From contig CAYYLQ010000002.1 of assembly GCA_964472655.1 (NCBI GenBank), positions 66,295 through 130,294 of the forward strand: a stretch of 64,000 nucleotides of DNA, written 5' to 3'. The stretch's first letter is position 1, and each line of letters begins with the position of its first letter. Position numbers and translations under genes: made by a program. The DNA is from an uncultured Nitrospirales bacterium. Its GTDB lineage: Bacteria > Nitrospirota > Nitrospiria > Nitrospirales > NS-4. The notes under the pieces were generated by a model, which worked only from the letters and a program-made list of their open reading frames with translations, ran no database searches and had not been told where the DNA came from. Of the stretch, positions 5,656 to 27,968 are shown piece by piece.

Positions 5656-5686
5656 TTGACACTTAGTGGCCCGTTTGCGGTATACT
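5656..5686 (+). promoter_or_regulatory. Sigma70-like promoter candidate upstream of shc
   Basis: TTGACA (5656-5661) and TATACT (5681-5686) lie in the 172-nt smc-shc intergenic region. The spacer is 19 nt, which is longer than optimal. Confidence 0.35.
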
Positions 5687-5766
5687 CGCAAACTAATGCG
5701 CCCCCAATGGTCCTTCCTTCATGCCATTAGGCGGACGAGCCAATTCGGCGTAGCCCAAAGGACATC

Positions 5767-7932
5767 ATGAAGCGGTTACTCGGCCTTCTGACCAATTGGT
5801 CTGAGAGGATTCTGTCGGCGGCGCCTGCGCGCGTGCAGCAGCAGGCCAGGCAGAAGGCCGGCCGGCTCCTGCGCCTCGTGGGCGGTGATCCCGGCACGGT
5901 GATGGCTTCCCCTGTCCCCGCGCGGGGTCAAGAGCCCAGCCAGGCCTCGAGCCAAGCGGCGGCTCAGAAGGGCCCATCGATCGAGGAGGCCCTCAAGCGG
6001 GGCCAGCAGTGGCTGCTCTCCCAGCAGGCCGAAGCAGGGTACTGGGTCCATGAACTGGAAGCCGATACGACGCTGACTGCGGAGTACCTCATGCTCCGCC
6101 GATTCCTCGGCCTCGTGGACAAGGAGAAAGAACGAAAGGCCGTCCGCTACCTAATCGACGCGCAGTTGTCGGAAGGCGGATGGCCGATCTATTTCGGCGG
6201 GCCCGCGGAGATCAGCGCGTCGGTGAAGGCCTACTTTGCACTCAAGCTCTCCGGTGTCTCTCCCGACGAACCCTTCATGCGGAAGGCCCGCGCGGCGATT
6301 CTGAACATCGGCGGGGTCGTCCGGGCGAACGTCTTTACCAAGATCACGCTGGCACTCTTCGATCAATACGACTGGCGCGGCATTCCGACGATGCCGGTCG
6401 AATTGGCCTTCCTGCCGCCGAACAGCGTGTTCAGCCTCTACGATCTCTCTTACTGGTCGCGAGCCGTGCTGACTCCGCTGCTGATCATTTTCCATGACAA
6501 GCCCCTGTGCCGTATCCCTGAAGAGCAGGGGATCAATGAGCTCTGGTGCGTCCCGCGGAGTCAGATGGACTTTCGGCATGCGCCGCCTTTTCTCAGGGAC
6601 CGGTTCTGGTTTACCTGGAAGAATTTCTTCATTACGCTGGATCGCTGTTTGCGCATTTATGAGCGCATGATCCCCGAGGGGCTGAGCAGAAAAGCCGTCG
6701 AACGCGCCGCTGCTTGGATGATCGAGCGGATGGAGGGAGAGGGCGGGCTCGGCGCCATCTATCCGGCGATGGCCAATTCGGTCGTGGCGCTGCGGTGCCT
6801 GGGCCGTTCTGTGGATGATCCCCTCTTGCGCAGGGCTCTCGGCGAGATCGAGGCGCTGGAAGTACACGACGGGGACGCGATGCATCTGCAGCCGTGCTTC
6901 TCGCCGATTTGGGATACGCCGCTGACGATCAACAGCCTGATCGAGAGCGGCCTGCCGCAGGACCATCCCGCGCTCATCCGGGCCGCACGCTGGGTTGTGA
7001 CGAAGCAGTGCCGGAAGGTCGGCGACTGGATCGTCTCGTCGCCCAAGGCTTCGCCGGGCGGGTGGTACTTCCAGTTCGAGAATGAATTCTATCCGGACAA
7101 CGACGACACGGCGGTCGTGATCATTGCCCTGTCGAAGCTCGCCATGCCGGAGGCGGACGTCCAACGCGCCGCCATGCAGCGCGGGATCCGATGGACGCTG
7201 GCGATGCAGGGGAGCGACGGCGGGTGGGGGGCGTACGACAAGGACAACAACAAGCTGTTCCTGAACCAGATCCCCTTTGCCGATCATAAGGCGCTGCTCG
7301 ATCCCAGCACGGCCGATCTGGCCGGGCGCGAATTGGAGATGCTGGGAGCGCTGGGCTATGACCTGAGTCATCCGGCGGCGGTGCGCGCGATCCGGTTCCT
7401 CCGGAAGAACCAGGAGGCCGATGGATCGTGGTACGGCCGCTGGGGCGTTAATTACGTCTATGGGACCTGGTCCGTGCTCGCCGGCTTGAAGGCGATCGGC
7501 GAGGACATGCAGGCCGAATACGTCCGCCGGGCGGTGACATGGCTGGTGTCGAAGCAGAACCCGGACGGCGGATGGGGCGAGTCCTGTCTCTCGTACGCGG
7601 AGGCCGGCGCGCATGGCGTGGGGGAGAGCACGCCTTCCCAGACCGCATGGGCGCTCCTCGGACTGTTGTGCGCCGGCGAGGTGGAGACGATCAGCGTGGT
7701 GCGGGGCGTCAACTATCTCCTGCGACGTCAGGCCCCCCAAGGGTTCTGGCCTGAACGCATGCACACCGGCACGGGCTTCCCGCGCGTGTTCTACCTCCGC
7801 TACCACGGCTACAGCCATTTCTTTTCCCTGTGGGCCTTGTCCATGTACCGGTCGCTCAAAGCGCGCGGGCGCACCCGCGCGGACGAGATCCGAGAGCAGA
7901 ACCGGCAAGCCGGGCGGTTCCGTCTCGCGTAA
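5767..7932 (+). CDS. shc: Squalene-hopene cyclase
   Basis: Catalytic DxDDTA motif (YPDNDDTAVVIIAL). Repeated QW-type motifs (QNPDGGWGE, QGSDGGWGAY, QEADGSWYGRWG). ATG 5767 is preceded by AAAGGA. About 70 N-terminal residues precede the region that aligns by eye with characterised SHCs, so ATG 5902 is an alternative start. Confidence 0.95.
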   Translation: MKRLLGLLTNWSERILSAAPARVQQQARQKAGRLLRLVGGDPGTVMASPVPARGQEPSQASSQAAAQKGPSIEEALKRGQQWLLSQQAEAGYWVHELEADTTLTAEYLMLRRFLGLVDKEKERKAVRYLIDAQLSEGGWPIYFGGPAEISASVKAYFALKLSGVSPDEPFMRKARAAILNIGGVVRANVFTKITLALFDQYDWRGIPTMPVELAFLPPNSVFSLYDLSYWSRAVLTPLLIIFHDKPLCRIPEEQGINELWCVPRSQMDFRHAPPFLRDRFWFTWKNFFITLDRCLRIYERMIPEGLSRKAVERAAAWMIERMEGEGGLGAIYPAMANSVVALRCLGRSVDDPLLRRALGEIEALEVHDGDAMHLQPCFSPIWDTPLTINSLIESGLPQDHPALIRAARWVVTKQCRKVGDWIVSSPKASPGGWYFQFENEFYPDNDDTAVVIIALSKLAMPEADVQRAAMQRGIRWTLAMQGSDGGWGAYDKDNNKLFLNQIPFADHKALLDPSTADLAGRELEMLGALGYDLSHPAAVRAIRFLRKNQEADGSWYGRWGVNYVYGTWSVLAGLKAIGEDMQAEYVRRAVTWLVSKQNPDGGWGESCLSYAEAGAHGVGESTPSQTAWALLGLLCAGEVETISVVRGVNYLLRRQAPQGFWPERMHTGTGFPRVFYLRYHGYSHFFSLWALSMYRSLKARGRTRADEIREQNRQAGRFRLA

Positions 7933-7938
7933 TGAGCG

Positions 7939-8706
7939 ATGCGACGCGTCGCCATCTTGGCCGCTTCCGGACGCGAGTTGGCGCTCATACGCGGGGTGTT
8001 TGGTGTCGGCTGGAATACCCGGAGGGGGCGTCTCGGCCCATTCTGGCATGAAGTCGGACGGACGGAAGAGATCGAAGTGCATCTGATCAGGACCGGCGTC
8101 GGCCGGGAGCGCGCGCGGGAAGCCAGTGAAACGGCGGTGTCCGCATTCGCCCCGGATGCGCTGATCTCGACGGGGTACGCGGGATCCTTGGGTGTCGCGA
8201 ATATCGGCGAGGTCATTCTCGGCACCAAGATTTTCGATTGGACCAAGGAACGAACAGGCCAGGGCATCCAGACCGATCCGGCGCTGCTCGACCGCGCGCG
8301 CGAGGCCGCTCGCGATGCGCGGATTGCCTGGACGCAAGGGCCGGTTGTCACGGTGGAACACGTGGTGTGGCGGGCCAGCGAGAAGCAGGCGCTCGGGGAA
8401 GTCAGCGGCGCTGTTGCGGTGGACATGGAGAGCGCCGCCATCGCCAAAGTAGCGGCCTCCGCCGGTATCCCGTTTCTGTTGGTCCGCGCGATCTCCGATC
8501 GTGTCCAAGACGACCTGCCGATGGACTTCAACCTCTGGTTCGCGCCGTTCGGGTCCCTGCGGTGTGTTCTGCTGATTCTGAAAAGCCCGTCGATTGTGCG
8601 GGGGCTCTATGAGATGAAACGCCATGCGGACCAGGCTTCCGAAAGCCTGCAGCGGTTCTTTTCCAAGTTGGTGGCGGAGATGCCTATGATTGCAGGAGCG
8701 CACTGA
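7939..8706 (+). CDS. hpnG: Hopanoid-associated nucleosidase/phosphorylase (PNP/MTA-nucleosidase fold), HpnG-like
   Basis: PNP_UDP-type motifs AVAVDMESAAIA and FLLVRAISD. The start is 6 nt after the shc stop. Confidence 0.75.
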   Translation: MRRVAILAASGRELALIRGVFGVGWNTRRGRLGPFWHEVGRTEEIEVHLIRTGVGRERAREASETAVSAFAPDALISTGYAGSLGVANIGEVILGTKIFDWTKERTGQGIQTDPALLDRAREAARDARIAWTQGPVVTVEHVVWRASEKQALGEVSGAVAVDMESAAIAKVAASAGIPFLLVRAISDRVQDDLPMDFNLWFAPFGSLRCVLLILKSPSIVRGLYEMKRHADQASESLQRFFSKLVAEMPMIAGAH

Positions 8707-9479
8707 TGGTGACCGCCGCTGTTGCCGGATTCGGCCGGAACACCCTGTGGATCGTCGGCGAGATGGGCCGCATGATGATCTTCTTGATCGGCACGGTCGC
8801 GTGGATGGTGCGTCCGCCCTTTCGTTTCATGCAGATCCTGAAGCAGGTCCATTTCATCGGCGTGAAATCCCTCTTTGTGATCGTGCTGACGGGCGCCTTC
8901 ACCGGTATGGTGTTGGGGCTGCAGGGCTATTACTCGCTCCGGAAATTCGGCGCAGAGGGGTGGCTGGGCTCGGCGGTGGCGCTGAGCATCATCAGGGAGC
9001 TGGGGCCGGTGTTGTCGGCCCTCATGGTGACAGGACGCGCGGGTTCCGCCATGACGGCGGAGATCGGCATCATGCGCATCACCGAACAGATTGACGCCCT
9101 CGACACGATGGCGGTTAATCCCATGCAGTACCTGATTGCGCCCAAGGTGCTGGCCAGCGTGTTCATCATGCCGATGCTCTGCTCGATCTTCGATATCATC
9201 GGCATCTACGGCGGTTATCTGGTCGGAGTTGAGCTGCTGGGCGTGAGCTCGGGCGCCTATACCAGCTCGATGGAGTCCAGCGTGGAGTGGAAGGACGTCT
9301 ACGGAGGGTTTCTCAAGGCCGTCAGCTTCGGCGTGATCGTCTCCTGGGTCTGTACTTATAAGGGCTATCATACGACGATGAGCGCGGAGGGATTGGGAAC
9401 GGCCACCACGGAGGCGGTCGTGCTCTCTTCCGTCCTCATCCTCATCTGGGACTATTTCGTGACCTCGGTGTTGATGTGA
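8706..9479 (+). CDS. mlaE: MlaE-family ABC transporter permease
   Basis: Polytopic protein with MlaE-type conserved block ELGPVLSALMVTGRAGSAMTAEIGIMRITEQIDAL. The ATG overlaps the hpnG stop (TGATG). Confidence 0.85.
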   Translation: MVTAAVAGFGRNTLWIVGEMGRMMIFLIGTVAWMVRPPFRFMQILKQVHFIGVKSLFVIVLTGAFTGMVLGLQGYYSLRKFGAEGWLGSAVALSIIRELGPVLSALMVTGRAGSAMTAEIGIMRITEQIDALDTMAVNPMQYLIAPKVLASVFIMPMLCSIFDIIGIYGGYLVGVELLGVSSGAYTSSMESSVEWKDVYGGFLKAVSFGVIVSWVCTYKGYHTTMSAEGLGTATTEAVVLSSVLILIWDYFVTSVLM

Positions 9480-10270
9480 AGGGAGGGGGGGCATCCACAC
9501 CCGTGATTCGTCTTGTAGGAGTGGAGAAGGCCTTGGGCGGGCAGCCGGTCCTGACGGGCGTGAATCTGGAGATTCCCCGGGGAAAGGTGACCACGGTCAT
9601 CGGCAAGAGCGGGGGCGGGAAAAGCGTCCTGCTCAAGCACATGATCGGGCTTCTCAGGCCGGACCGGGGGCAGGTGCTGGTGGACGAAACCGACATCGCG
9701 CGACTCAGCGCGCGCAATCTGAACGAGGTCCGCAAGAAGTTCGCCATGCTGTTCCAGGGCGCGGCGCTGTTCGATTCGCTCACCGTCTTTGAGAACGTCG
9801 CCTTTCCCCTGCGCGAGAAGACGAAGCTCAGGGCGGTGGAGGTCGAACACAAAGTCCTCGAGATGTTGGAGGCCGTCGGGCTCACGGGCATGGGGCATAA
9901 GTTTCCCGCTGAACTCAGCGGCGGCATGCGCAAGAGGGCGGGGCTGGCGCGCGCGCTCGTGATGGGGCCGGAGATCATTCTCTTCGACGAGCCGACCACG
10001 GGGCTCGATCCGCTCCTGGCGCGTACGATCCACGACCTGATCCTCGAGACCCAGCGGCGGTTCGGGTTCACGGCCGTCATGGTGAGCCACGAAATCCCTG
10101 AAATCTTCGGGATCTCGGATTACGTGGCGATGCTGTTGGACGGGGTGATCGCCGAGATGGCGCCGCCGGAGCAGTTTCAGCGCACGAGGCATCCCGGCGT
10201 GCGGGAATTCATTAACCTTGGCCCGAGGTCAGAGACCGTCTCCTCCGGGGCCGGCAGGGAGATTCGATGA
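9476..10270 (+). CDS. mlaF: MlaF-family ABC transporter ATPase
   Basis: Walker A GKSGGGKS, signature LSGGMRKR, Walker B ILFDEPTTGLD. GTG 9476 overlaps the mlaE stop. GTG 9503 is an alternative start. Confidence 0.9.
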   Translation: MKGGGASTPVIRLVGVEKALGGQPVLTGVNLEIPRGKVTTVIGKSGGGKSVLLKHMIGLLRPDRGQVLVDETDIARLSARNLNEVRKKFAMLFQGAALFDSLTVFENVAFPLREKTKLRAVEVEHKVLEMLEAVGLTGMGHKFPAELSGGMRKRAGLARALVMGPEIILFDEPTTGLDPLLARTIHDLILETQRRFGFTAVMVSHEIPEIFGISDYVAMLLDGVIAEMAPPEQFQRTRHPGVREFINLGPRSETVSSGAGREIR

Positions 10271-10716
10271 CTATGAACGACACCAAATTGGAGCTCGTCG
10301 TCGGGGTCTTTGTGCTGGTCGGGATCACGGCCCTGACATATCTTGCGGTCAAGCTCGGGAAACTTGAGGTGATCGGCGGCAACCAGTATGAGATACAGGC
10401 GGAGTTTGATTCAGTGGCCGGGCTCAAGACGGGCGCGACGGTCGAGATTGCCGGCGTGCAGGTCGGCCAGGTGAAGAAGATCGGACTGAAGGGGGACCGT
10501 GCGGTGGTGCTCTTTACGCTGACGCCGGGCGTGAAGCTGTACGGCGATGCCATCGCTTCGGTCAAGACCCGCGGTCTGATCGGCGACAAGTACCTCTCGC
10601 TCTCGCCGGGCGGGTCGCAGAAGGAATTGCCGCCGGGCGCACAAATCCGCGATACCGAGTCCGGAGTCGACCTGGAATCGTTGATCGGAGAATTCATTCA
10701 TGGAAACGTCAAGTAG
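10267..10716 (+). CDS. mlaD: MlaD-family MCE-domain protein (membrane-anchored, periplasmic)
   Basis: N-terminal TM segment (LELVVGVFVLVGITALTYLAV) followed by a single MCE-like domain (AEFDSVAGLKTGATVEIAGVQVGQVKKI). ATGA overlap with mlaF. Confidence 0.8.
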   Translation: MTMNDTKLELVVGVFVLVGITALTYLAVKLGKLEVIGGNQYEIQAEFDSVAGLKTGATVEIAGVQVGQVKKIGLKGDRAVVLFTLTPGVKLYGDAIASVKTRGLIGDKYLSLSPGGSQKELPPGAQIRDTESGVDLESLIGEFIHGNVK

Positions 10717-10738
10717 AACCGCGGAGGAGACAAAGGTG

Positions 10739-11395
10739 ATGCGACGTCGTGCAAACAGGCTGGCGGTTGTCCTGGCCGGCAGCTTGATCGGCGGGGCTAT
10801 CGGGGGGATGACGGCGACGGCGTGGGCAGGGCCTTCGACCGATGCTATCAAGAAGTCCGTTGACGAGGTGATCCGCATCCTGGAAGACCCGGCGTGGAAG
10901 AAACCGGAAAAAAAGGAAGAGCGCCGCAAGCTGCTGGAACAGACCATCGCCCAACGGTTCAATTTTACCGAAATGGCGAAGCGGAGTCTGGGGGCTGAAT
11001 GGGCCAAGCGGACGCCGGAGGAGCAAAAGGAATTCGCGGCCAATTTCCAGACCTTGCTGGCCAATACGTACATCGGACGGATCGAGGCCTACTCAGGCGA
11101 GAAGGTGCAGTACCTCAAGGAAATGAGTGACGGTGAGTTCGCGGAAGTCTATACGCATGTCGACACCGGCAAGTCCGTGGTCGACATCAATTACCGACTT
11201 CAGAAAAATTCCGAGGACTGGCGCGTCTACGATGTGGTGGTGGAAGGCACCAGCCTGGTCCAGAATTACCGCGAGCAGTTCAAGAGAATCCTCCGCAAGG
11301 ATTCATTTGCGGGACTGTCCAAGCAACTTCGGGATAAGTCGGCCAACATACGCGCTCCTGCTCCGGACGGCAGCGACACGGCCAAAGGTCGATGA
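10739..11395 (+). CDS. mlaC: MlaC/Ttg2D-like periplasmic lipid-binding protein
   Basis: ATG 10739 follows GGAGGAG (10723-10729). Signal peptide MRRRANRLAVVLAGSLIGGAIGGMTATAWA. MlaC-like blocks (FNFTEMAKRSLG, FQTLLANTYI, WRVYDVVVEGTSLVQNYREQF). The ORF track starts at 10700. Confidence 0.7.
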   Translation: MRRRANRLAVVLAGSLIGGAIGGMTATAWAGPSTDAIKKSVDEVIRILEDPAWKKPEKKEERRKLLEQTIAQRFNFTEMAKRSLGAEWAKRTPEEQKEFAANFQTLLANTYIGRIEAYSGEKVQYLKEMSDGEFAEVYTHVDTGKSVVDINYRLQKNSEDWRVYDVVVEGTSLVQNYREQFKRILRKDSFAGLSKQLRDKSANIRAPAPDGSDTAKGR

Positions 11396-11401
11396 GCTCT
11401 G

Positions 11402-12610
11402 GTGACACTTTTTCTTCGCGTTGTTGGTGTTGCCTCAGCCTATGCGTTCGGATTGTTTCTTGCCCCGTTGCCGGAGGCGCGTGCCGAGGAGCAGTCCTAT
11501 TTCGTGATCCCGGCCGTCGCGGCGTCGAAGAACGACGGCGTGGACGTGGGGGTGATCGTCCCCTATGTCTTTGCGGACGACGAGGGCCGCGTGACCCAGA
11601 TCGTCGCGCCGATGTATATTCACAATGAATTTGTGGGCTCACGCGGGACAATCAACATCTTTCAGTATCCGGAGCGCGGGGAACAATACAAGCTCATTGC
11701 GTCGTTCACGGAGAAGATTGAGCGCAAATTCCTGCTCGACTACCAGAATCTCTTTCTGGAGCAAGGGCGGTACAGCCTGGAAGGAAACGTCGGGTTTTTC
11801 AAAAATGCGACGGCGCGGTTTTTCGGGATCGGCCCTCAGACCTCTGTAGCGCAAGAAACCAACTATACTGACCGCGAACTCCTGGGGCATATCACGGGCG
11901 GGCTCTATGTCGGACCCGGCCGGCGGGTGCTGTTCACTGAACGGCTGCGGAATGTAGATGTACAGGTGGGTGCGGTGCACAATCTCCCTTTTACCCAAGC
12001 GGTGTTTCCGACGATCAAAGGGACGGGCGGGGCGACGGTATGGGGCCACAAGCTGGCGTTCCTCGACGATACGCGGGACGACACGCTGACGCCCACGATC
12101 GGGACCTACTTTACAATGTTCGCGGAACTGGCGCAGACCCTGACGGCCGACACGAAAACCATCTTCAGCCGGTACGGGTTCGACTATCGGATGCTGCTGC
12201 CGAATCAGACCAAGGAGTACACTTTTGTGGTCCGGGCAAAATTGGAGGCCACGGTCGGCGGCGCTGAAATTCCGTTCTTCGAACGGAGCAGTCTGGGCGG
12301 CCAGAACTCGCTGCGCGGATTTGGCGTGGGCCGTTTTGTCGACAACCATGCCCTTGTTCTGAACGTCGAGGAGCGGATCCAGTTGTTTCATCTGAAGGTC
12401 TTTGGCACCGTCGCCGAAGTGGAGACGGCGCCCTTCCTCGACGTCGGCAAGGTGACAAATACATTCCGGTACCGGGCCTTCTCCCAGTACGAGGCCAACC
12501 CCGGCATCGGGTTTCGGGCAATCGCACGTCCCAATGTCGTGGGACGGGTGGATTTTGCAAACGGTAACGAAGGGCAAACCGTGTTTGCGGGACTGGACTT
12601 TCCCTTCTGA
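11402..12610 (+). CDS. Omp85-family outer-membrane beta-barrel without recognisable POTRA domains
   Basis: Signal peptide ending EARA. Bacterial-surface-antigen type C-terminal barrel motifs (FFERSSLGGQNSLRGFGVGRF). Terminal Phe (GLDFPF). Confidence 0.65.
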   Translation: MTLFLRVVGVASAYAFGLFLAPLPEARAEEQSYFVIPAVAASKNDGVDVGVIVPYVFADDEGRVTQIVAPMYIHNEFVGSRGTINIFQYPERGEQYKLIASFTEKIERKFLLDYQNLFLEQGRYSLEGNVGFFKNATARFFGIGPQTSVAQETNYTDRELLGHITGGLYVGPGRRVLFTERLRNVDVQVGAVHNLPFTQAVFPTIKGTGGATVWGHKLAFLDDTRDDTLTPTIGTYFTMFAELAQTLTADTKTIFSRYGFDYRMLLPNQTKEYTFVVRAKLEATVGGAEIPFFERSSLGGQNSLRGFGVGRFVDNHALVLNVEERIQLFHLKVFGTVAEVETAPFLDVGKVTNTFRYRAFSQYEANPGIGFRAIARPNVVGRVDFANGNEGQTVFAGLDFPF

Positions 12611-12624
12611 CGCATGAGGCGATA

Positions 12625-13677
12625 TTGAACGATCAGCAGAAGGGAGGGGGCCGGCCGGGTGCCCCGTGGTTCGTGCTGGGCGTGCTCACGGTCGTGCTCT
12701 TTCTGGGGCAGTCGACAGGGACCGCCGCCGCTGAAGTTTTCATCGGCCAGGGCCTCGTGCCAGTCCGAAACTACCAGCCCCTCCAGGGGCTGTCGTTGCA
12801 GATGCCGGGAGAGTCGGCGATTCCGTTGAAAAAGGGCGAACTCAGTCTACGCGCCGATTTTGCCGAAACGAGCACCATCCTGCATGAGGTGACTCCCGTC
12901 GCGAATGGCGTGCTGAAGTTCGGCCAGCTCCGTTCCGCCATTGACGTCCGGTATGGAACCGCCATGGAGAACGTGGAGGTGGGACTCGAGATCGCGTCGG
13001 TGTATCGCCATTCGACCGGACTGGACGGGCTGATCCTGGCGGTAGAGAGTTTCTTTGATAGGAGAGCCCCCGCTCGGAAGCAACTCAAGAATTCCGGTTT
13101 CGTCTACGTGCTCAACCGAAACGGACAGACTCTGCTCAATGGGCCGAACGACGCCTATGGGCTCACCGATGCTGTTTTGCACGCTAAAGGCCTGATGGTC
13201 GATGAAGGGCAGTACGCTCCGGCAGTGTCCCTGCGGCTGGCTCTGAATGTGCCGATGGGTGACCGGAGCCGTGCGTTCGGGACCCGTGTTGCGGATCTGG
13301 GCGTCGGATTGGCGCTCCAAAAGACCGTCTGGAATCGGGTGGTCCTCTATGTCAACGTCAATGAAATCCTGCCGACCGGGCAGTATTTGGGGGTAGGGCT
13401 TCGAAGCTATTTCACGTCGATCACGGGCGTGGAGTTCATGGTGACGCCGCAGTTCTCGATCACGGGACAGTTTGACTATTACCAGTCGCCGTTCGGCAAC
13501 ACGGGACTCAAGCTTTTGGATAACGGAGTCACCGAAGCCGTCTTGGCCTTCGGCTACCGTTTCACGCCGACTCTCCTCTGGCAGATCTACGGCGTAGAGA
13601 ACCTCGATTTTATCAGGGATTCCGCCGCAGATTTTACGCTTGCGACGGTGCTGACCTATCGAATTCCTCCGAGGTAG
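12625..13677 (+). CDS. Putative outer-membrane beta-barrel protein of unknown function (DUF3187-like, tentative)
   Basis: TTG start after GAGG. Signal peptide (WFVLGVLTVVLFLGQSTGTAAA). Alternating beta-strand pattern through to the C-terminus. It is the last gene of the shc operon. Confidence 0.45.
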   Translation: MNDQQKGGGRPGAPWFVLGVLTVVLFLGQSTGTAAAEVFIGQGLVPVRNYQPLQGLSLQMPGESAIPLKKGELSLRADFAETSTILHEVTPVANGVLKFGQLRSAIDVRYGTAMENVEVGLEIASVYRHSTGLDGLILAVESFFDRRAPARKQLKNSGFVYVLNRNGQTLLNGPNDAYGLTDAVLHAKGLMVDEGQYAPAVSLRLALNVPMGDRSRAFGTRVADLGVGLALQKTVWNRVVLYVNVNEILPTGQYLGVGLRSYFTSITGVEFMVTPQFSITGQFDYYQSPFGNTGLKLLDNGVTEAVLAFGYRFTPTLLWQIYGVENLDFIRDSAADFTLATVLTYRIPPR

Positions 13678-13690: not shown

Positions 13691-13719
13691 TTGACACGCA
13701 CGTGTGGCTGTGTGAAAAT
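13691..13719 (+). promoter_or_regulatory. Sigma70-like promoter candidate upstream of dxs
   Basis: TTGACA (13691-13696), a 17-nt spacer, then GAAAAT (13714-13719) preceded by TGT, which resembles an extended -10. Confidence 0.35.
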
Positions 13720-13793: not shown

Positions 13794-15692
13794 ATGTCCC
13801 TTTTGAAGACGATCAACAGCCCGGCCGATTTGAAACGGGTGCCGGTCGAGCAACTTCCAGCACTGGCTGAGGAGATCCGTGAGCAGATCATCTCAGTGAC
13901 GTCGGCCGTGGGCGGGCATCTGTCGTCCAACCTCGGTGTGGTCGAGCTCACCCTGGCGTTGCATTACCTGCTGGACACGCCCAAAGACAAGATCGTCTGG
14001 GATACCAGCAATCAGGCATACGCCCACAAGCTCCTGACCGGCCGGCGCGAGCTGTTCCGCACGCTCCGCCAGTACGGCGGGGTCAGCGGCTTCTGCAAGC
14101 GAGAGGAGAGCATCTACGATACGTTCAACGCGGGCCATGCCGGAACCGGCGTCTCAGCGGCGATGGGGATGGCAGTGGCGCGAGACTTGGCGGAACAGCA
14201 CCATAAAGTCGTGTGCGTAGTGGGCGATGGGGCGATGACGTCCGGCATGACCCTGGAGGCCATGCAGCACGCGGGCGGTCTGCGCAAGGACCTGCTGGTC
14301 ATTCTCAACGACAATCAGATGTCCATCTCCAAGAACGTCGGCTCGCTCTCGGCCTATCTGAACCGCACGTTCACCGGCGAATTTATGACCCATATGAAGG
14401 CAGAGGCCAAGCATCTCATCCAGGCGATCCCACAGGTGGGCGGTCAGATCAGTCGGATGGCGCACCGCGCCGAGGAGCTGGCGAAAGGCCTGATCCTGCC
14501 GGGCGTCCTATTCGAGGAACTGGGCTTCCGGTATGTCGGTCCGATCGACGGGCACAGCTTCGAGCAGTTGCTGCCGACCCTGGAGAACGTGCTCAAATTA
14601 CAGGGGCCGACGCTGTTCCACGTGATTACGAAGAAGGGGCTCGGCTACGAGCCCGCCATGAAGGATCCGGTCTGGTTCCATGCCTGCTCGGCGTTCGTGC
14701 GTGAGACGGGGCAGCCCGCTACGAAAAGCGCGAAGCCGTCCTACACCGCGGTGGCGATCAACACCCTCTGCCGGCTGGCGCGTGAAGACAAACGCATCGT
14801 CGCGATCACGGCGGCTATGTGCGACGGCACGGGCCTGAACGCCTTCGCCAAGCAGTTCCCAGACCGCTTCCACGACGTCGGCATCGCAGAGCAGCACGCG
14901 CTGACTTTTGCCGCGGGCCTTGCGACGCAAGGCGTCCGGCCGGTGGTGGCGATGTACTCCACGTTCCTGCAGCGGGCGTTTGACCAAGTCGTGCACGACG
15001 TGGCGACACAGAACCTGCCGGTCTCCATTTTCATCGACCGGGGCGGGCTGGTGGCCGAGGACGGCACGACGCACCACGGCGCGTTCGATTACGCCTTTCT
15101 CCGGCACGTGCCGAACATGGTGGTGATGGCGCCGAAGGATGAGAACGAGCTCCAGCACATGGTCAAGACATGCCTGAGCCACGAAGGCCCGGCCTCCGTC
15201 CGGTACTCCCGCGGGAGCGCCTGGGGCGTACCTATGGACCCTGAGCCGAAGGCCCTGCCGCTCGGGCGGGGCGAGCTGTTGCGCGAAGGGCATGACGTGG
15301 CCCTCGTCGCAATCGGGATTACAGTGCTCCCCGCGTTGCGGGCTGCCGAACGGCTGGCGGAGGAAGGCATCTCGGCCGCCGTCGTAAACGCCCGCTTCGT
15401 CAAGCCGCTCGATCATGCGCTGATCGCGCGGGTCGCCGGCCGGGTGAAGTGCCTTGTGACGGTGGAGGAAGGCTGCCGCATGGGCGGCTTCGGGTCCGCG
15501 GTATTGGAATCGTTGTCGGAGCAGGGCATCGGCCCCCTGTTGACGAAGGTGATGGGCCTGCCCGATAAATACATCGAGCAGGGGCCACAAGATCTGCTGC
15601 GCGTGCAGTACGGGTTGACGGCGGACGGGATCTACGAAGAGACGAAGGACTTGCTGGCCAAGGCCGATTTTCAGGTCGAGGAACGGTTCTGA
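13794..15692 (+). CDS. dxs: 1-deoxy-D-xylulose-5-phosphate synthase
   Basis: Typical N-terminus MSLLKTINSPADLK. TPP-binding motif GDGAMTSGMTLEAM...LNDNQMSIS. Transketolase-like pyrimidine-binding and C-terminal domains. Confidence 0.95.
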   Translation: MSLLKTINSPADLKRVPVEQLPALAEEIREQIISVTSAVGGHLSSNLGVVELTLALHYLLDTPKDKIVWDTSNQAYAHKLLTGRRELFRTLRQYGGVSGFCKREESIYDTFNAGHAGTGVSAAMGMAVARDLAEQHHKVVCVVGDGAMTSGMTLEAMQHAGGLRKDLLVILNDNQMSISKNVGSLSAYLNRTFTGEFMTHMKAEAKHLIQAIPQVGGQISRMAHRAEELAKGLILPGVLFEELGFRYVGPIDGHSFEQLLPTLENVLKLQGPTLFHVITKKGLGYEPAMKDPVWFHACSAFVRETGQPATKSAKPSYTAVAINTLCRLAREDKRIVAITAAMCDGTGLNAFAKQFPDRFHDVGIAEQHALTFAAGLATQGVRPVVAMYSTFLQRAFDQVVHDVATQNLPVSIFIDRGGLVAEDGTTHHGAFDYAFLRHVPNMVVMAPKDENELQHMVKTCLSHEGPASVRYSRGSAWGVPMDPEPKALPLGRGELLREGHDVALVAIGITVLPALRAAERLAEEGISAAVVNARFVKPLDHALIARVAGRVKCLVTVEEGCRMGGFGSAVLESLSEQGIGPLLTKVMGLPDKYIEQGPQDLLRVQYGLTADGIYEETKDLLAKADFQVEERF

Positions 15693-15694
15693 GC

Positions 15695-16870
15695 ATGTTC
15701 ATCAAGCGGCGCAAGACGAAGCAGATCCGCGTGGGCCAGGTGCCCATCGGCGGGGGCGCGCCGGTGGTGGTCCAGTCCATGACGACGCCGGACACGGCTG
15801 ACGTCAAAGCCACGGTCGAGCAGATCCATCAGCTGGAGCAGGTCGGGTGCGAGATCGTCCGGGTGACGGTGAACACGCCGGAGGCCGCGAAGGCGCTCCC
15901 GGCCATCAGAAAACAGACTGTGGTGCCGCTCATCGCCGACATTCACTTCGACCACCGGCTGGCGCTCAAGGCCGCGGAGGTCGTGGACTGTGTGCGCATC
16001 AATCCCGGCAACATCGGGGCCTGGTGGAAGGTGGAAGAAGTGGTGAAGGCCGTGCGGGAACGGAACATCCCCCTGCGGATCGGCGTCAACGGCGGCTCAC
16101 TCGAACGGGAACTGCTGACGAAGTACGGCTATCCGACGGCCGAGGCGCTGGCGGAGTCGGCGCTCAACGCCGTACACGCGATCGAGGACATCGGCTTCAC
16201 GAACATGAAGGTGTCGCTCAAGGCGTCGGACGTGCCCTTGATGGTGGATGCGTACCGGCTCTTTGCCCTGCAATCGGACTACCCCCTGCACCTGGGCGTG
16301 ACGGAGGCCGGCACGCTGCTGACCGGTTCGATCAAGTCCTCGGTTGGTATCGGCCTGCTGCTGGCCGACGGCATCGGGGACACGATCCGCGTGTCGCTGG
16401 CGGCCGATCCGGTGGAGGAAGTCAAGGTCGGGTTCGAGGTTCTCAAGGCGCTCGAATTGCGGCACCGCGGGGTCAACGTCATCGCCTGTCCGACGTGCGG
16501 GCGGGTGGAGATTGACGTGGTCAAGCTCGCCAATGAGATCGAGAAACGGGTGGGGCATATCCGGGTTCCGTTGACGGTGTCGGTGCTGGGCTGCGTCGTG
16601 AACGGGATCGGCGAAGGCAAGGAGGCCGACATCGGCATCGCCGGCGGCGAGGGCCAAGGGGGTCATGGCATTCTCTTCAAAGAGGGGAAGCTGATCCGGA
16701 AGGTCAAGTCGGAAGATCTGATGGAGACGTTGCTCGCCGAAATCGAGATCATGGCCAAGGAGCGGGAAGCCGGCGGCGCGGAAGACAAAGACAACGGGCA
16801 CGGCCACGGCGGTGCTCAGGGTGATGCGGCGACTCCCGCGAAGAAGGAAATTCCGGTCCTCAAGGTCTGA
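15695..16870 (+). CDS. ispG: 4-hydroxy-3-methylbut-2-enyl diphosphate synthase (GcpE)
   Basis: GcpE-type sequence throughout (VQSMTTPDT, RVTVNTPEAA, RINPGNIG). Cluster cysteines CPTCGR and GCVVNGIGE. Starts 2 nt after the dxs stop. Carries a roughly 35-aa Gly/His/Asp-rich C-terminal tail. Confidence 0.95.
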   Translation: MFIKRRKTKQIRVGQVPIGGGAPVVVQSMTTPDTADVKATVEQIHQLEQVGCEIVRVTVNTPEAAKALPAIRKQTVVPLIADIHFDHRLALKAAEVVDCVRINPGNIGAWWKVEEVVKAVRERNIPLRIGVNGGSLERELLTKYGYPTAEALAESALNAVHAIEDIGFTNMKVSLKASDVPLMVDAYRLFALQSDYPLHLGVTEAGTLLTGSIKSSVGIGLLLADGIGDTIRVSLAADPVEEVKVGFEVLKALELRHRGVNVIACPTCGRVEIDVVKLANEIEKRVGHIRVPLTVSVLGCVVNGIGEGKEADIGIAGGEGQGGHGILFKEGKLIRKVKSEDLMETLLAEIEIMAKEREAGGAEDKDNGHGHGGAQGDAATPAKKEIPVLKV

Positions 16871-16926: not shown

Positions 16927-17002
16927 GGCGCCGTACCCAAGTGGTTAAGGGAGCAGTCTGCAAAACTGCGATGCAGCGGTTCGACCCCGCTCGGCGCCTC
17001 CA
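16927..17002 (+). tRNA. tRNA-Cys (anticodon GCA), CCA encoded
   Basis: Hand-folded cloverleaf. Acceptor GGCGCCG/CGGCGCC. Anticodon stem GCAGT/ACTGC with loop CTGCAAA. T-arm AGCGG-TTCGACC-CCGCT. Discriminator T followed by CCA. Confidence 0.9.
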
Positions 17003-17380: not shown

Positions 17381-18628
17381 TCAAGCGGATACCCTGCGTA
17401 GCGCAAGAACTGCGTTCGTACCGCCAAACGCAAAAGCGTTGACCAGGGCCGTCCGCACATCGGTACGTCGAGCGGTGTTAGGAATGTAATCAAGATCGCA
17501 TTCCGGGTCATGGTGTTCATAATTGATGGTGGGGGGCAAGCTTTGGTCGCGCAGCGCCATGATCGTCGCGATGGTCGCCAACGCCCCTGAAGCTCCGAGC
17601 GTATGCCCGATCATGGACTTGATTGAGCTCACCGCCAGTTTCGAAACATGGGGGCCGAAAACCTGCTTGATAGCTTTTGTCTCTCTTGCATCATTGAACG
17701 GAGTGGAGGTGCCGTGGGCGCTGATGTAATCGATGTCGCCGGGATGGAAACCGGCATCGGACAGCACCAAAGCCAAGCAACGAGTAGCGCCATCGGCGTC
17801 TGGCGCGGGGGTTGTGGAATGGTAGGCGTCAGCCGTCATCGCGTACCCGCAGAGTTCGGCGTAGATGCGGGCCCCACGGGCAAGGGCATGGTCTCGTTCC
17901 TCCAAGATGACGACCCCGGACCCTTCGCCCAGCACGAAGCCGTCCCGCTGCGCATCAAAGGGACGGCTGGCATGCTGGGGGGCTTCGTTCCGTGACGAAA
18001 GTGCCCGCATCGAGTCAAAGCCCCAGAGGACAAGCGGCGTAACGATGGCCTCGCTTCCCCCGGCCAGCATGATGTCGGCATCGCCGCGCTGAATTAGCCG
18101 GAAGGCATCGCCAATGGCATGACTCCCGGCAGCGCAGGCGGTGCTGGGAGAGGTATTCGGTCCTTTCGCGCCATACCGCATCGAAATCCATCCCGCGGCC
18201 ATGTTGGGGATGATCGCCGGGATCATATACGGCACCGCTCTGCCGGCTCCATATTGCGATAGGATGCTCTGGGCTTCCATGAGCTTCGGCACTCCTCCCA
18301 TTGCCGTGCCAATACTCGTCCCTGTCCGGTCAGCGGTCCCTCCGGACAAGACGAGCGAAGCATCGCGCATGGCTTCTTCGGTTGCCGCCAGGGCGTATTG
18401 AATAAAGAGGTCCGTCCGGAGAACGTCCTTCTTTTCCATAAACGCCAGAGGATCGAAATTCGGGACTTGCGCGGCGATTTGCGTTCTATGTTGGTGGGGG
18501 TCGAATCGCGTAATCCGGCCGACTCCGGAACGTCCTTCCGTGAGGCCTTGCCAAAATCTTCTGACCCCTGCACCCAGTGGTGTGACCGCGCCCATCCCTG
18601 TTACAACGACGCGTTGCCTAGCCATCAC
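17381..18628 (-). CDS. Beta-ketoacyl-ACP synthase II-like (FabF family)
   Basis: Cys-His-His triad contexts are present (PSTACAAGSHAIG, ADAYHSTTP, ISAHGTSTPFND). C-terminal GFGGTNA-type motif (FAFGGTNAVL). Confidence 0.9.
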   Translation of the reverse strand: MMARQRVVVTGMGAVTPLGAGVRRFWQGLTEGRSGVGRITRFDPHQHRTQIAAQVPNFDPLAFMEKKDVLRTDLFIQYALAATEEAMRDASLVLSGGTADRTGTSIGTAMGGVPKLMEAQSILSQYGAGRAVPYMIPAIIPNMAAGWISMRYGAKGPNTSPSTACAAGSHAIGDAFRLIQRGDADIMLAGGSEAIVTPLVLWGFDSMRALSSRNEAPQHASRPFDAQRDGFVLGEGSGVVILEERDHALARGARIYAELCGYAMTADAYHSTTPAPDADGATRCLALVLSDAGFHPGDIDYISAHGTSTPFNDARETKAIKQVFGPHVSKLAVSSIKSMIGHTLGASGALATIATIMALRDQSLPPTINYEHHDPECDLDYIPNTARRTDVRTALVNAFAFGGTNAVLALRRVSA

Positions 18629-18675
18629 TTTCCCCCAATAAGCGTTGGATGGCGGTCAGTCGCAGACGAGTTCTA

Positions 18676-19677
18676 TTATAACAGGGAGTCGGCGGAATGG
18701 TGATTGCGCAGTGTAGGCTTTTCCTTGGGCAACTGGGCGCCGAAAAACTCGGCCAACGCTGCCACCACTGAGTGCCTCTGCTTATCGACCGTAATCACGT
18801 GGTAGCAGTCTTCTAAGAGGACCAACCGTTTCTCCCTGGAGGAGATTTCGTCATGGACGATCTGGGCATTGCGTGGGCTGGAAAGGTCATCCTCCAGGGC
18901 TTGGAGAATGACGGTGGGTGCGGTGACGGCTCGCAACCGGCTGCGAACGCGTGTGATGAGCCGATCGAGATCGGTGAACGTTTTCAATGGAAATACCGGG
19001 TAGCCTATCGTTGCCGCCGAAGAGGCTGAAATCCCGTTATTCCCGGCATGGTTGGTCCAACGTGTCCAATGGGCGCGCAGCCACTCCCGCAGCAACGTGA
19101 GCATACTATAAGACTGCTGCATACGAGCCTGGAGTTGCTCGTCCTTGATTCCGAAGGGAGGCCCATCGACGTGAAAGAAGAAAGATTGCAAGGGACGGGG
19201 GATCCATTTCATGGCCAATGGCAGGATTGCGTGTGTCCAGGGAGTATTCCACCCATCGTAGATGAATGTCGGGGAAAGGACCCCGACGCCATTAATACCC
19301 ACGAAGGCTGAGGCTTCCAGGGCCAGGAGTCCACCTGCGCTGAGACCGGCCACAAAGATATAGTCGTAGCGATCCCGCGCAAAGGCAAGTTGCGCCTTGA
19401 TATGTTCCAGCCAGTCATGGTCATTGGTCTTCAGAAGGTCTCTGAGCCGCGTGCCGTGGCCTGGCAGCGTCGTTGCGTAGACGTCCCATCGATGGCGCGC
19501 CAGTCCCCGGCCCAGGTAGCGCATCTCGGTCGGTGTGCCGGTCACACCGTGGATCAGGTACACCAAGACCTTCGAACCGTTCTCAAAGGCCAGGTCGGTG
19601 CTCCGGCGACCGACCATGCCATCGAGCAGGCTCGGCGGTTTGGCAGGGTTCTGGCTGAGGTTTAGTGTTTCGTGCAT
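18676..19677 (-). CDS. Alpha/beta-fold hydrolase (esterase, lipase or thioesterase-like)
   Basis: Oxyanion-type LIHGVTGTP. Nucleophile elbow GLSAGG. Candidate acid and His residues (LEDDLS, CYHVITVD). Confidence 0.75.
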   Translation of the reverse strand: MHETLNLSQNPAKPPSLLDGMVGRRSTDLAFENGSKVLVYLIHGVTGTPTEMRYLGRGLARHRWDVYATTLPGHGTRLRDLLKTNDHDWLEHIKAQLAFARDRYDYIFVAGLSAGGLLALEASAFVGINGVGVLSPTFIYDGWNTPWTHAILPLAMKWIPRPLQSFFFHVDGPPFGIKDEQLQARMQQSYSMLTLLREWLRAHWTRWTNHAGNNGISASSAATIGYPVFPLKTFTDLDRLITRVRSRLRAVTAPTVILQALEDDLSSPRNAQIVHDEISSREKRLVLLEDCYHVITVDKQRHSVVAALAEFFGAQLPKEKPTLRNHHSADSLL

Positions 19678-21056: not shown

Positions 21057-21763
21057 GTCGCCGTATCTTTCCCGTGAAAGATTTGTTCGGTAACTTGCGT
21101 GAGGGTCTCGAACGGTTCGCACGCGATTCCCTGGAGCTTGCACCAGTCTCGAAGGTTCCCCTTGGCAAAGACCTTGCCAGCTTTCGCCGAGACACACCGG
21201 TCGGATTGACCGTCTCCGATGTACACGGACCTGGGGGACGAAAGTCCGGAAGGCACGGCCAGCGCGCACTTACATGTGGCGGCTCCACTCTCACACCCTG
21301 ATACAGCACACGGGAAACTGAGTGAGGGCCGTCCGTCTAGGGCCCAGCTCAGGTGACTCGCAAACACGGGGATGTGCGACAGACCGTGTCGAGACAGCAC
21401 CGTCTTGATAAACAGGTCGATGCCGTCACTCACGATCGTAAGGCGTGTGCCGTGCTCGGCGCATCGCTGGTCAAGAGAAAAAATTCCTTCGTCTATGGGG
21501 AGATCGGCCACAAACTGGACAAGCGTTGCCTCATCTGCCCGGATCAGCTCCACTTGCCGCGCAAGACATTCCTGGCTGTTGATCTCTCCCTTTTGCCATT
21601 GCTGCTCCCACTCTCGGAATGCAGGAAGCGCAAAGGCCTCAAGGACAGCATCGGTGATATCGACTTCGGTTATCGTCCCATCGAAATCACAGTAAACTTC
21701 CGCCGGAGGTAGCCAACCACGCGCGGGGAGTTCCTCGCGGCATCCGACCGATTTCGTTAACAA
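21053..21763 (-). CDS. HAD-IB family phosphatase, MtnX-like (2-hydroxy-3-keto-5-methylthiopentenyl-1-phosphate phosphatase-like)
   Basis: HAD motif I DFDGTIT, motif II TIVSDG, motif IV YIGDGQSDRC. Cys-rich insert CAVSGCESGAATCKC occupies the same position as the Cys cluster of MtnX as I recall its sequence. TTG start. Confidence 0.7.
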   Translation of the reverse strand: MLTKSVGCREELPARGWLPPAEVYCDFDGTITEVDITDAVLEAFALPAFREWEQQWQKGEINSQECLARQVELIRADEATLVQFVADLPIDEGIFSLDQRCAEHGTRLTIVSDGIDLFIKTVLSRHGLSHIPVFASHLSWALDGRPSLSFPCAVSGCESGAATCKCALAVPSGLSSPRSVYIGDGQSDRCVSAKAGKVFAKGNLRDWCKLQGIACEPFETLTQVTEQIFHGKDTAT

Positions 21764-23360: not shown

Positions 23361-24377
23361 ATGGCCGTGCCTGTCTCCCAGATGTTCACTGTCACTAAGT
23401 ACGTGTTGACCCAGAAGCTCAAAGGGGTCAAACGCTATCCGCTCGTCCTGATGCTGGAACCACTCTTTCGCTGCAATCTTGCCTGTGCGGGCTGCGGCAA
23501 GATCCAGTATCCCGATCATGTCCTGGACAAGCGTCTGACGCCGGAACAGTGCTGGGCGGCCGCCGAGGAATGCGGCGCGCCGATCGTGAGCATTCCGGGC
23601 GGGGAGCCGCTCATCCATCCTGAGATGCCGGCGATCGTGAAAGGACTGGTCGATCGGAAGAAGTACGTCTATCTTTGCACCAACGCCATCTTATTGGAGC
23701 GCAAGCTCGACGAGTACCAGCCGTCGCAATACCTGACATTCAGCATTCACATGGACGGCTTGCAGGCAGAGCACGACCTGGCGGTCTGTCGGGACGGCGT
23801 GTACGACGTCGCCGTCAAAGCGATCAAGGCGGCGCTCACGCGAGGGTTCCGGGTCACCACGAACACGACGCTCTTCGACGACGCCGATCCCGCGCGCGTC
23901 CGGAAGTTCTTCGATGCCATGATGGAGTTGGGCGTCGAAGGCATGATGATTTCTCCGGGGTACAGCTACGAGAAGGCGCCCGACCAAAAGAACTTCCTCA
24001 AGCGGCAGCGGACGCGCGAGCTTTTTTCGCGGATTCTCCACCGGCCCAAGACCGGCTGGCGGTTCAATCAGTCCCCGCTCTTCCTCGACTTCCTCATGGG
24101 CAAGGTGGACTACCAATGCACGCCCTGGGGCAATCCGACCTACAACATCTTCGGCTGGCAGAAGCCCTGTTACCTGCTCCAGGACGGCTATGTGGCGAGT
24201 TTCAGGGAACTCATGGACCAGACCGCCTGGGACAGCTACGGAACCGGACGTAACGAGAAATGCGCCGATTGCATGGTGCATTGCGGATATGAAGCGTCCG
24301 CCGTGGACGATACGTTCGGCTCGCTGCGGGGGTTCGGCCGATCGGTCGTGGCGACGCTGATGCCGACCGCCCGGTAG
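23361..24377 (+). CDS. hpnH: Radical-SAM adenosylhopane synthase HpnH-like
   Basis: CxxxCxxC motif CNLACAGC near the N-terminus. HpnH-like blocks (VSIPGGEPLIHPE, YLCTNAILL, RVTTNTTLF). C-terminal Cys pair (CADCMVHCGYE). Confidence 0.85.
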   Translation: MAVPVSQMFTVTKYVLTQKLKGVKRYPLVLMLEPLFRCNLACAGCGKIQYPDHVLDKRLTPEQCWAAAEECGAPIVSIPGGEPLIHPEMPAIVKGLVDRKKYVYLCTNAILLERKLDEYQPSQYLTFSIHMDGLQAEHDLAVCRDGVYDVAVKAIKAALTRGFRVTTNTTLFDDADPARVRKFFDAMMELGVEGMMISPGYSYEKAPDQKNFLKRQRTRELFSRILHRPKTGWRFNQSPLFLDFLMGKVDYQCTPWGNPTYNIFGWQKPCYLLQDGYVASFRELMDQTAWDSYGTGRNEKCADCMVHCGYEASAVDDTFGSLRGFGRSVVATLMPTAR

Positions 24378-27959: not shown

Positions 27960-27968
27960 GGGGGAGCC

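Follow-up and report, generated by a model that had tools for sequence, protein, structure and literature searches.

A conserved Nitrospirales operon couples squalene-hopene cyclase to an Mla-type lipid transporter and an outer-membrane barrel

Gene content and junctions of the hopanoid-Mla unit

A stretch of 64,000 nucleotides (nt) from an uncultured Nitrospirales bacterium, the whole of which is referred to here as the window, carries at positions 5767-13677 of its plus strand eight near-gapless genes that were identified from an open reading frame (ORF) listing and profile searches. They encode, in order, a squalene-hopene cyclase (shc), an HpnG-like protein, the Mla components MlaE, MlaF and MlaD, an MlaC-like carrier, a barrel of the Omp85 superfamily (Omp85L) and a DUF3187 barrel (Table 1). 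Read directly from the sequence, shc and hpnG are separated by 6 nt, hpnG and mlaE share 1 nt in TGATG, mlaE and mlaF overlap by 4 nt in GTGA, mlaF and mlaD overlap by 4 nt in ATGA, and mlaD ends 22 nt before the mlaC start codon; a further 6 nt separate mlaC from the Omp85 barrel gene and 14 nt separate the latter from the DUF3187 gene. The gaps within the unit thus range from -4 to 22 nt, and 116 nt lie between the DUF3187 gene and dxs. An original prediction made from the DNA letters had described these eight co-directional genes and each of their junctions, and the ORF list, the profiles and the sequence agree with it on coordinates, families and overlaps.

Table 1. Features of the hopanoid-Mla unit and of its surroundings in the window.
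Feature	Position	Strand	Evidence
Promoter-like block upstream of shc	5656..5686	+	TTGACA (5656-5661), 19-nt spacer, TATACT (5681-5686)
shc, squalene-hopene cyclase (721 aa)	5767..7932	+	TIGR01507 760 bits, cutoff 431; PF13243, PF13249
hpnG-like nucleoside phosphorylase/nucleosidase (255 aa)	7939..8706	+	PF01048 (PNP_UDP_1) 92.8 bits
mlaE, MCE/Mla ABC permease (257 aa)	8706..9479	+	PF02405 281 bits; TIGR00056 262 bits, cutoff 212
mlaF, ABC ATPase (264 aa)	9476..10270	+	PF00005 114 bits
mlaD, short single-MCE-domain protein (149 aa)	10267..10716	+	TIGR04430 141.5 bits, cutoff 135; PF02470
mlaC-like periplasmic lipid carrier (218 aa)	10739..11395	+	PF05494 161 bits
Omp85-superfamily outer-membrane barrel, POTRA-less (402 aa)	11402..12610	+	PF01103 58.9 bits, cutoff 24
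DUF3187 outer-membrane beta-barrel (350 aa), variable operon member	12625..13677	+	PF11383 44.1 bits, cutoff 24
Promoter-like site upstream of dxs	13691..13719	+	TTGACA, 17 nt, TG-GAAAAT; 10/12 positions match
dxs + ispG, isoprenoid precursor genes of the methylerythritol phosphate pathway	13794..16870	+	TIGR00204 823 bits; NF001540 498 bits
hpnH, radical-SAM adenosylhopane synthase	23361..24377	+	PF04055 + PF11946 (DUF3463)

The eight genes behave as a single conserved operon whose order is kept across Nitrospirales, in line with the one-operon reading of the original prediction. That prediction had also placed one promoter before shc and the next before dxs, and both candidates are found. 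The first takes the form TTGACA-N19-TATACT; six Nitrospirales relatives have the two hexamers unchanged amid variable flanking bases, and our consensus scan missed the block because the scan permits spacers of 16-18 nt only. The second is a promoter-like site at which the next transcription unit may begin. Inside the eight-gene unit, the scan returned no convincing terminator and no strong promoter, with 8 terminator-like matches against 8.5 expected. We infer that the genes are co-transcribed and that their products work as one complex. The leader of about 80 nt that runs from the promoter block to the shc start (5687-5766) contains stretches that are invariant in the six relatives, such as GGCGGAC, and may be a regulatory element; an Rfam search of this conserved leader gave neither a riboswitch nor any other match.

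The first two genes are assigned to hopanoid synthesis, the second of them putatively. The shc product matches the squalene-hopene cyclase (SHC) family at the equivalog level (TIGR01507), and the context of its start codon is conserved in relatives. The best NCBIfam match of the hpnG-like product is HpnG (TIGR03468), at 128.6 bits and below the cutoff of 187, ahead of MTA/SAH nucleosidase, and the protein is presumed to be an adenosylhopane nucleosidase. Further downstream, the 90% cluster to which the hpnH product belongs bears the name adenosyl-hopene transferase HpnH. Hopanoid production is documented for Nitrospirales, which carry shc and hpnH (PMC10579370).

The next four genes supply MlaE, MlaF, MlaD and an MlaC-like carrier, which are the components of a complete Mla/MCE ABC lipid transporter of the shuttle type. 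For the MlaF product the best NCBIfam match is MlaF itself (PRK11831), at 221 bits against an equivalog cutoff of 441, and the translation of MlaD displays one N-terminal transmembrane anchor. The longest ORF of mlaC opens at 10700; the ATG at 10739 has GGAGGAG just upstream and yields the 218-aa length of the homologues. The MlaC-like protein carries a Sec signal peptide that ends in ...TAWA before GP, has no lipobox, and among sequences in the PDB matches 2QGU best, followed by MlaC and Ttg2D chains. The combination of a short MlaD with an MlaC shuttle contrasts with the long bridging MlaD proteins described elsewhere (PMC10665443).

Two barrels complete the unit. Omp85L has a Sec signal peptide, a C-terminus reading ...GLDFPF and about 374 mature residues; it scores 120 bits against NF047779 (cutoff 200) and 37.6 bits against BamA (TIGR03303, cutoff 297). 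No POTRA match was found in Pfam, and only about 60 residues lie between the signal peptide and the barrel match. Because of this size and the missing POTRA match, we take Omp85L to be a barrel alone and not BamA, TamA or TpsB proper. A single-sequence AlphaFold2 model reached a predicted local distance difference test (pLDDT) score of 32 and is unusable for counting strands. For the DUF3187 protein, the translation of which also begins with a Sec signal peptide, an alignment-based model (pLDDT 87, predicted template modelling score 0.81) predicts about 12-14 strands arranged as a barrel, with short helices inside. Its nearest folds in Foldseek are FapF and the COG4313 channel 4RL8, with FadL at lower TM-scores. 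COG4313 and FadL are channels for hydrophobic molecules. The resemblance of the model to barrels that pass such molecules is suggestive, and is not proof.

Several partners of the known systems were sought. Neither Pfam, applied to candidate ORFs of at least 200 aa, nor tblastn detected an hpnN-, mlaA- or TolC-like gene within the 64 kb of the window, as the original prediction had held for hpnN and mlaA. The MlaA family (PF04333) had no match among the window ORFs scanned, and two MlaA-like tblastn queries gave none for the window and none for about 85 Nitrospirales loci. The expectation of an outer-membrane partner other than MlaA is thereby upheld, with a barrel encoded instead. Likewise, no HpnN/MMPL gene was found in the window or within 10 kb on either side of more than 70 Nitrospirales clusters, and tblastn with a candidate HpnN of B. 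multivorans, a query of unverified identity, produced no match in the window or the loci. As for mlaB, the operon leaves no room for an extra gene and related operons have none; no screen was aimed at small STAS ORFs in the rest of the window.

Conservation in Nitrospirales and recurrence in a second phylum

Annotations assign homologues of the MlaC-like and DUF3187 proteins to Nitrospirales, Nitrospiraceae or Nitrospirota. We scanned one genome per GTDB species and mapped the loci of the best 80 of 581 MlaC-like relatives, all of which proved to be Nitrospirales. Presence and absence were called by tblastn thresholds against contigs of metagenome-assembled genomes (MAGs), start codons in high-GC loci are approximate, and the trees used throughout are neighbour-joining (NJ) trees without support values. 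The nearest MlaC-like relative is 88% identical, and canonical Nitrospira species reach only about 50%; across the order the identity floor is about 48% for MlaC, 42% for Omp85L and 40% for DUF3187. The seven genes shc-hpnG-mlaE-mlaF-mlaD-mlaC-omp85L were recovered in the same order and orientation in 57 of these 80 loci, an arrangement far beyond chance. A further 15 loci are partial: 14 are cut by contig ends yet consistent in order, and one (L053) is without omp85L and keeps DUF3187. The last 8 are stray MlaC paralogues with unrelated neighbours. The same gene maps, with precomputed Pfam calls, came out of three independent contig look-ups. The linkage is therefore kept across the order and is no peculiarity of one genome, the point on which the original prediction had made its case depend.

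The surroundings of the unit are conserved as well. Among the 57 full clusters, dxs-ispG follows downstream in 51 and a gene for SMC precedes in 56, and hpnH lies within 10 kb, in the same conserved neighbourhood, in 33. Within the unit, hpnG always stands between shc and mlaE and is the fastest-evolving gene of the operon (median identity 34%). Its junction with mlaE has a median length of -1 nt over 61 loci and measures 30 nt or less in 85% of them. Approximate values from about 60 species place the median gap between mlaC and omp85L at 18.5 nt, that between SMC and shc at 196 nt, and that between the last barrel gene and dxs at about 170-220 nt across loci; taken together, the junction lengths describe a compact unit with a regulatory gap on either side.

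The stray copies fall into two groups of orphan MlaC paralogues that lie away from any mlaFED, the first with five members (L049, L059, L073, L076 and L086) and the second with three (L077, L083 and L085). In the two members of the first group that were inspected, L059 and L086, a gene for an archaeal-type S-adenosylmethionine synthetase (PF01941) follows immediately 3', and in L083, inspected for the second, a DegP-like protease precedes. In one MAG, SCVQ01, a cluster copy (L053) coexists with an orphan (L085). Next to the orphan genes, no further mlaFED was observed. A degenerate Nitrospirota cluster was also observed (SMVB01093041.1; L105:5895-16092), in which shc-hpnG is followed by a 60-aa mlaE remnant, mlaC, a TPR protein gene and dxs-ispG-hpnH; here mlaC is retained and mlaF, mlaD and omp85L are lost.

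Beyond Nitrospirales, the query proved to be surrounded by a large MlaC family when 1.8 billion representative proteins were searched. A profile built from MlaC representatives less than 56% identical to any fetched Nitrospirales locus retrieved proteins named Thermodesulfovibrionales, Dissulfurispira, NC10 and Nitrospirota. Dissulfurispira thermophila, a further Thermodesulfovibrionia MAG and one NC10 MAG have the arrangement mlaE-mlaF-mlaD-OEP (TolC-like)-mlaC, in no case near shc, and another Nitrospirota MAG has mlaEFD-mlaC with a divergent MlaA. We then scanned metagenomes with the MlaC representatives nearest the Nitrospirales copies in a rough NJ tree and mapped the best 80 of 550 loci. 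Most are plain mlaEFD(-OEP)-mlaC or MlaA-containing operons. In three of about 11 long non-Nitrospirales loci (L111, L139 and L162), however, hopanoid genes are fused to mla. These contigs are placed in Methylomirabilota on the basis of cluster look-ups, the L139 shc sharing a 90% cluster with an NC10 CSP1-5 protein and the L162 MlaD one with proteins named 'Methylomirabilota bacterium'.

Two of the three loci, L111 and L139, read mlaE-mlaF-mlaD-OEP-mlaC1, followed by a gene for an HpnN-like resistance-nodulation-division (RND) pump, mlaC2, a PagL-family barrel gene and shc; hpnN and mlaC2 overlap by 4 nt, as do the PagL gene and shc, and upstream in L111 lie the divergently transcribed hpnH and hpnG. 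The best match of the RND pump is TIGR03480 (HpnN), at 573 bits and below its cutoff, and the PagL-family barrel (L111:14119-14802, L139:7632-8309) matches PF09411 at 53 bits and has the H-x-S motif. The same RND protein (L111:10673-13447, L139:4231-6996) also matches the sterol transporter BstA, at 299 bits, and may carry a hopanoid or a sterol-like lipid. In the third locus, shc-mlaE-mlaF-mlaD-OEP-mlaC is accompanied on the other strand by hpnH, hpnG and a homologue of Omp85L, which stands beside hpnG and is 38% identical over 385 residues (PF01103, 65 bits). In an NJ tree of MlaE and MlaF, the Nitrospirales systems form one clade, and the SHC-linked systems of Methylomirabilota sit inside the OEP-type clade among unlinked ones. 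The idea that all SHC-linked Mla systems form one specialised subfamily is contradicted by this rough tree.

These data bear on whether the neighbourhood could merely be frozen, with SMC-shc-hpnG, mlaEFDC-omp85 and dxs-ispG inherited together and not functionally coupled. The functionally unrelated SMC gene is indeed as constant in position as the rest, and the single Nitrospirales clade implies that within the order the linkage reflects one evolutionary event. Against passive inheritance stand the stop/start overlaps at three junctions and the hpnG-mlaE median of -1 nt, to be compared with flanking gaps of about 200 nt. Furthermore, the Methylomirabilota linkage has another gene order and other partners, and the presence of shc within 10 kb of three of about 11 long non-Nitrospirales mla loci is far above chance. 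Linkage in two branches with different partners is hard to explain without a functional connection, and we regard a frozen neighbourhood as highly improbable, the least likely of the explanations considered here.

Beyond the unit, tRNA-Cys(GCA) lies directly after ispG at 16927-17002 and tRNA-Thr(CGT) at 39550-39624; these two were the only Rfam and ARAGORN matches in the whole window. A minus-strand block at 17381-21763 encodes a beta-ketoacyl synthase, an alpha/beta hydrolase, a 535-aa class-III aminotransferase and a HAD phosphatase, and together with a helix-turn-helix protein gene (22050-22922) it sits between ispG/tRNA-Cys and hpnH. Since hpnH follows ispG within about 1.5 kb in several relatives, the block looks like an inserted lipid/amino-lipid module, and the aminotransferase may have an HpnO-like role. 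Further on, positions 24871-36615 carry genes for cytochromes c, for a subunit of a cytochrome bd-like oxidase, for a Rieske protein paired with cytochrome b and for a haem protein of the EB_dh family, a cluster that we take to be typical of the respiratory chains of Nitrospira; no Pfam match was obtained for the ORFs at 30853-33568.

Cargo of the transporter and its outer-membrane end

We conclude that the operon is a real, conserved, hopanoid-coupled variant of the Mla system, for which we infer both substrate and direction. In the mechanism we propose, Shc would cyclise squalene at the inner membrane and HpnH and HpnG would extend the product to C35 hopanoids. This synthesis would be coupled to an MCE/Mla transporter with an MlaC shuttle, the outer-membrane end of which would be a beta-barrel and not an MlaA lipoprotein. 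The MlaC-type carrier would dock at the POTRA-less Omp85-like barrel, and in some lineages the DUF3187 barrel, with its COG4313/FapF-like fold, or a PagL-like barrel would assist the docking step. As a whole, the operon would build and balance a hopanoid-containing outer membrane.

Hopanoids are favoured as cargo because the linkage recurs in a second architecture, because transporters encoded within lipid-biosynthesis operons usually carry that lipid, as in the case of hpnN, mmpL genes and bstABC, and because MCE systems move polycyclic lipids in other settings, for example cholesterol in the case of Mce4. That hopanoids are among the transported lipids seems to us about evenly balanced between true and false, and phospholipids would probably be carried alongside them. 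The reading in its most complete form holds that Nitrospirales and Methylomirabilota use MlaFE, a short MlaD and an MlaC shuttle for hopanoids, with the POTRA-less Omp85 protein as an outer-membrane lipid gate and DUF3187, PagL-like or TolC-like proteins as accessories, in a system distinct from HpnN; we put this forward tentatively, as a proposal rather unlikely to prove correct in every part.

The same genes could instead constitute a housekeeping Mla system, in which MlaFEDC and the Omp85-like partner move glycerophospholipids only and shc is co-transcribed through envelope-lipid co-regulation. A number of observations favour this explanation and weigh against hopanoids as cargo. The closest operons outside the order are found in Thermodesulfovibrionia, a class in which SHC is recorded in 0 of 20 genomes in Table S5 of Lawrence et al. 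(10.1101/2025.07.29.667474), so the transporter lineage is not intrinsically a hopanoid system. The claim of the original prediction that the route is dedicated to hopanoids is weakened by these orthologous mlaEFD-OEP-mlaC operons. In addition, related operons occur with MlaA in other Nitrospirota and, in an NC10 genome, away from shc. SHC-linked and unlinked systems are equally similar to the window in their MlaE (54-65%) and do not form a single clade in the rough NJ tree of MlaE and MlaF. The window MlaC is closer to mlaC1 of Methylomirabilota (47%), with which it is orthologous, than to the HpnN-adjacent mlaC2 (33%), and by analogy with HpnN-HpnM it is mlaC2 that would be the hopanoid carrier. 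The coexistence of an HpnN-like pump and Mla in one Methylomirabilota operon suggests that the two have separate jobs, and argues against Mla replacing HpnN. Finally, the orphan MlaC genes showed no further mlaFED at their side, and the operon could therefore encode the only Mla system of the cell, in a housekeeping role.

Nor does the similarity to HpnM help to assign the cargo. TIGR03481 (HpnM) marks the MlaC-family gene in proteobacterial hopanoid loci, and HpnM is the best NCBIfam match of the window MlaC-like protein, at 90.2 bits and below the cutoff of 160.1. Control proteins behave in the same way, with 89.4 bits for Dissulfurispira, 93.6 for NC10 and 91 for an orphan Nitrospirales paralogue, all below 160.1. 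As a class without SHC and unlinked loci score alike, we rejected this match as evidence for a hopanoid carrier, and the loss of that argument counts against a hopanoid-only exporter. As regards adjacency to hpnN, a feature of HpnM, it is mlaC2 and not the orthologue of the window gene that follows hpnN in Methylomirabilota.

A housekeeping role is more difficult to square with the hpnG-mlaE junction, the tightest of the operon, which is kept across about 60 species, and with the recurrence of the linkage in a different architecture and clade; the general tendency of lipid-operon transporters to carry the lipid concerned also speaks for hopanoids. We therefore hold a purely phospholipid system to be a serious possibility that nonetheless falls somewhat short of an even chance.

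At the outer membrane, the original prediction had envisaged two barrels. Both are present in the window, but they are not a fixed pair. Omp85L, present in all 57 full Nitrospirales clusters, is the constant outer-membrane member, whereas DUF3187 is dispensable, present in 28 and absent from 29. In many Nitrospira just about 200 nt lie between omp85L and dxs, and in three loci DUF3187 is reduced to remnants. In the five closest relatives (L008-L011 and L013) the slot of DUF3187 is taken by a 215-aa PagL-family barrel (PF09411, 54 bits) with the H-x-S motif, located at L008:11875-12522 in the first of them. This barrel, the family of which has the lipid A 3-O-deacylase fold, may be a hopanoid-tied lipid-modifying enzyme, for example in hopanoid-lipid A chemistry.

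This variability raises the alternative that the barrels are not transport partners at all and instead modify lipids or handle proteins, through PagL-like lipid A remodelling, hopanoid-lipid A conjugation or an Omp85-type insertase activity, with MlaC handing lipid straight to the membrane or else to a partner encoded elsewhere. Such a role would fit the interchangeable slot after omp85L, which holds DUF3187, a PagL-family protein with H-x-S or nothing, as well as the PagL-like gene that overlaps the shc start in Methylomirabilota and the loss of omp85L from L053 and L105. It does not fit the retention of Omp85L in every full cluster, a median of 18.5 nt after mlaC, or the fact that related operons always encode an outer-membrane component, OEP or MlaA, beside mlaC. 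We consider it very unlikely, and retain docking of the carrier at Omp85L as the preferred arrangement.

The operon joins two questions, how hopanoids reach the outer membrane and how Mla functions without MlaA, in globally important nitrite oxidisers. It also supplies clonable candidates, namely the 218-aa MlaC-like carrier, the 402-aa POTRA-less Omp85 barrel and the DUF3187 or PagL-like barrel. With hopanoids as cargo, this would be a second hopanoid transport route, would reveal a lipid role for Omp85-type barrels, and would bear on the localisation of hopanoid biomarkers in nitrifiers. If the gate reading is true, it would provide the first assigned function of 'no-POTRA' Omp85 proteins in handling lipid rather than protein. 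Should the cargo be phospholipids, the operon would still show a hard-wired connection of hopanoid synthesis with outer-membrane lipid homeostasis in two phyla.

Comparison with known lipid transport systems

Like the MlaFEDB-MlaC-MlaA/OmpC system of E. coli, the window encodes MlaE, MlaF, a short single-MCE MlaD with a transmembrane anchor and a soluble MlaC, in the order E-F-D-C. In contrast with E. coli, the operon is without MlaB, and neither the window nor the Nitrospirales loci yielded an MlaA; the position expected of the outer-membrane partner is taken by the gene for a POTRA-less Omp85 barrel, alone or accompanied by that for a DUF3187 or PagL-like protein, and hopanoid enzymes come first. 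The mlaEFD-tolC(-tamB) operons of Negativicutes, or 'ancestral MlaEFD core', are likewise non-proteobacterial, without MlaA and MlaB, and equipped with an outer-membrane protein of their own, but in Veillonella MlaD is long and spans the envelope and MlaC is missing, whereas the window has a short MlaD with MlaC, an Omp85-like protein rather than TolC, and a fusion to shc-hpnG (PMC10665443).

Other transporters of polycyclic isoprenoid lipids, BstABC in Methylococcus and Mce4 in mycobacteria, resemble the window in being encoded near, or co-regulated with, lipid metabolism. Mce4 has six MCE subunits, operates in a mycolate envelope and imports cholesterol, which shows that MCE-type ABC systems can carry steroids. 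BstA is a sterol transporter and an RND pump (PMC11713862). Unlike the window, neither BstA nor Mce4 uses MlaC or an Omp85-like barrel.

The hopanoid systems themselves offer the closest comparison. To our knowledge, the RND pump HpnN of a few Proteobacteria is the only known means by which hopanoids reach the outer membrane. Lawrence et al. proposed HpnN-HpnM-HpnS/HpnT as an Mla-analogous hopanoid pathway in which HpnM is MlaC-like and HpnS MlaA-like, and cite Tripathi et al. for additional mlaC copies beside hopanoid genes (10.1101/2025.07.29.667474). The accessible text and supplements do not mention MlaE, MlaD, Mce, Omp85 or DUF3187; there, one Nitrospirales genome was sampled, and the list of neighbour families contains an MlaC-only 'hpnM*' near shc and no MCE/MlaE families. 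Our searches of the literature for hopanoids with Mla/Ttg2, and for Nitrospira with Mla/hpnN, found nothing further of relevance. The original prediction had supposed that no such route was described: the Mla-like idea had in fact already been put forward for HpnN/HpnM/HpnS, and the full MlaFEDC set with barrels is absent from the accessible parts of that account.

The HpnN-HpnM-HpnS systems of Pseudomonadota (TIGR03480/TIGR03481) and the window thus share an MlaC-family gene within a hopanoid cluster and the idea of an Mla-like periplasmic shuttle (10.1101/2025.07.29.667474). They differ in their engine, which is the RND protein HpnN in the former and an MlaFED ABC complex in the window, and in their outer-membrane partner, the MlaA-like HpnS as opposed to a barrel; in the Methylomirabilota clusters, HpnN-type and Mla systems stand side by side. 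The shc-mla operon is a variant of this recently hypothesised Mla-like hopanoid route and not a categorically new idea, and its conservation in Nitrospirales together with the linkage in a second phylum points to an undescribed link between hopanoids and inter-membrane lipid traffic.

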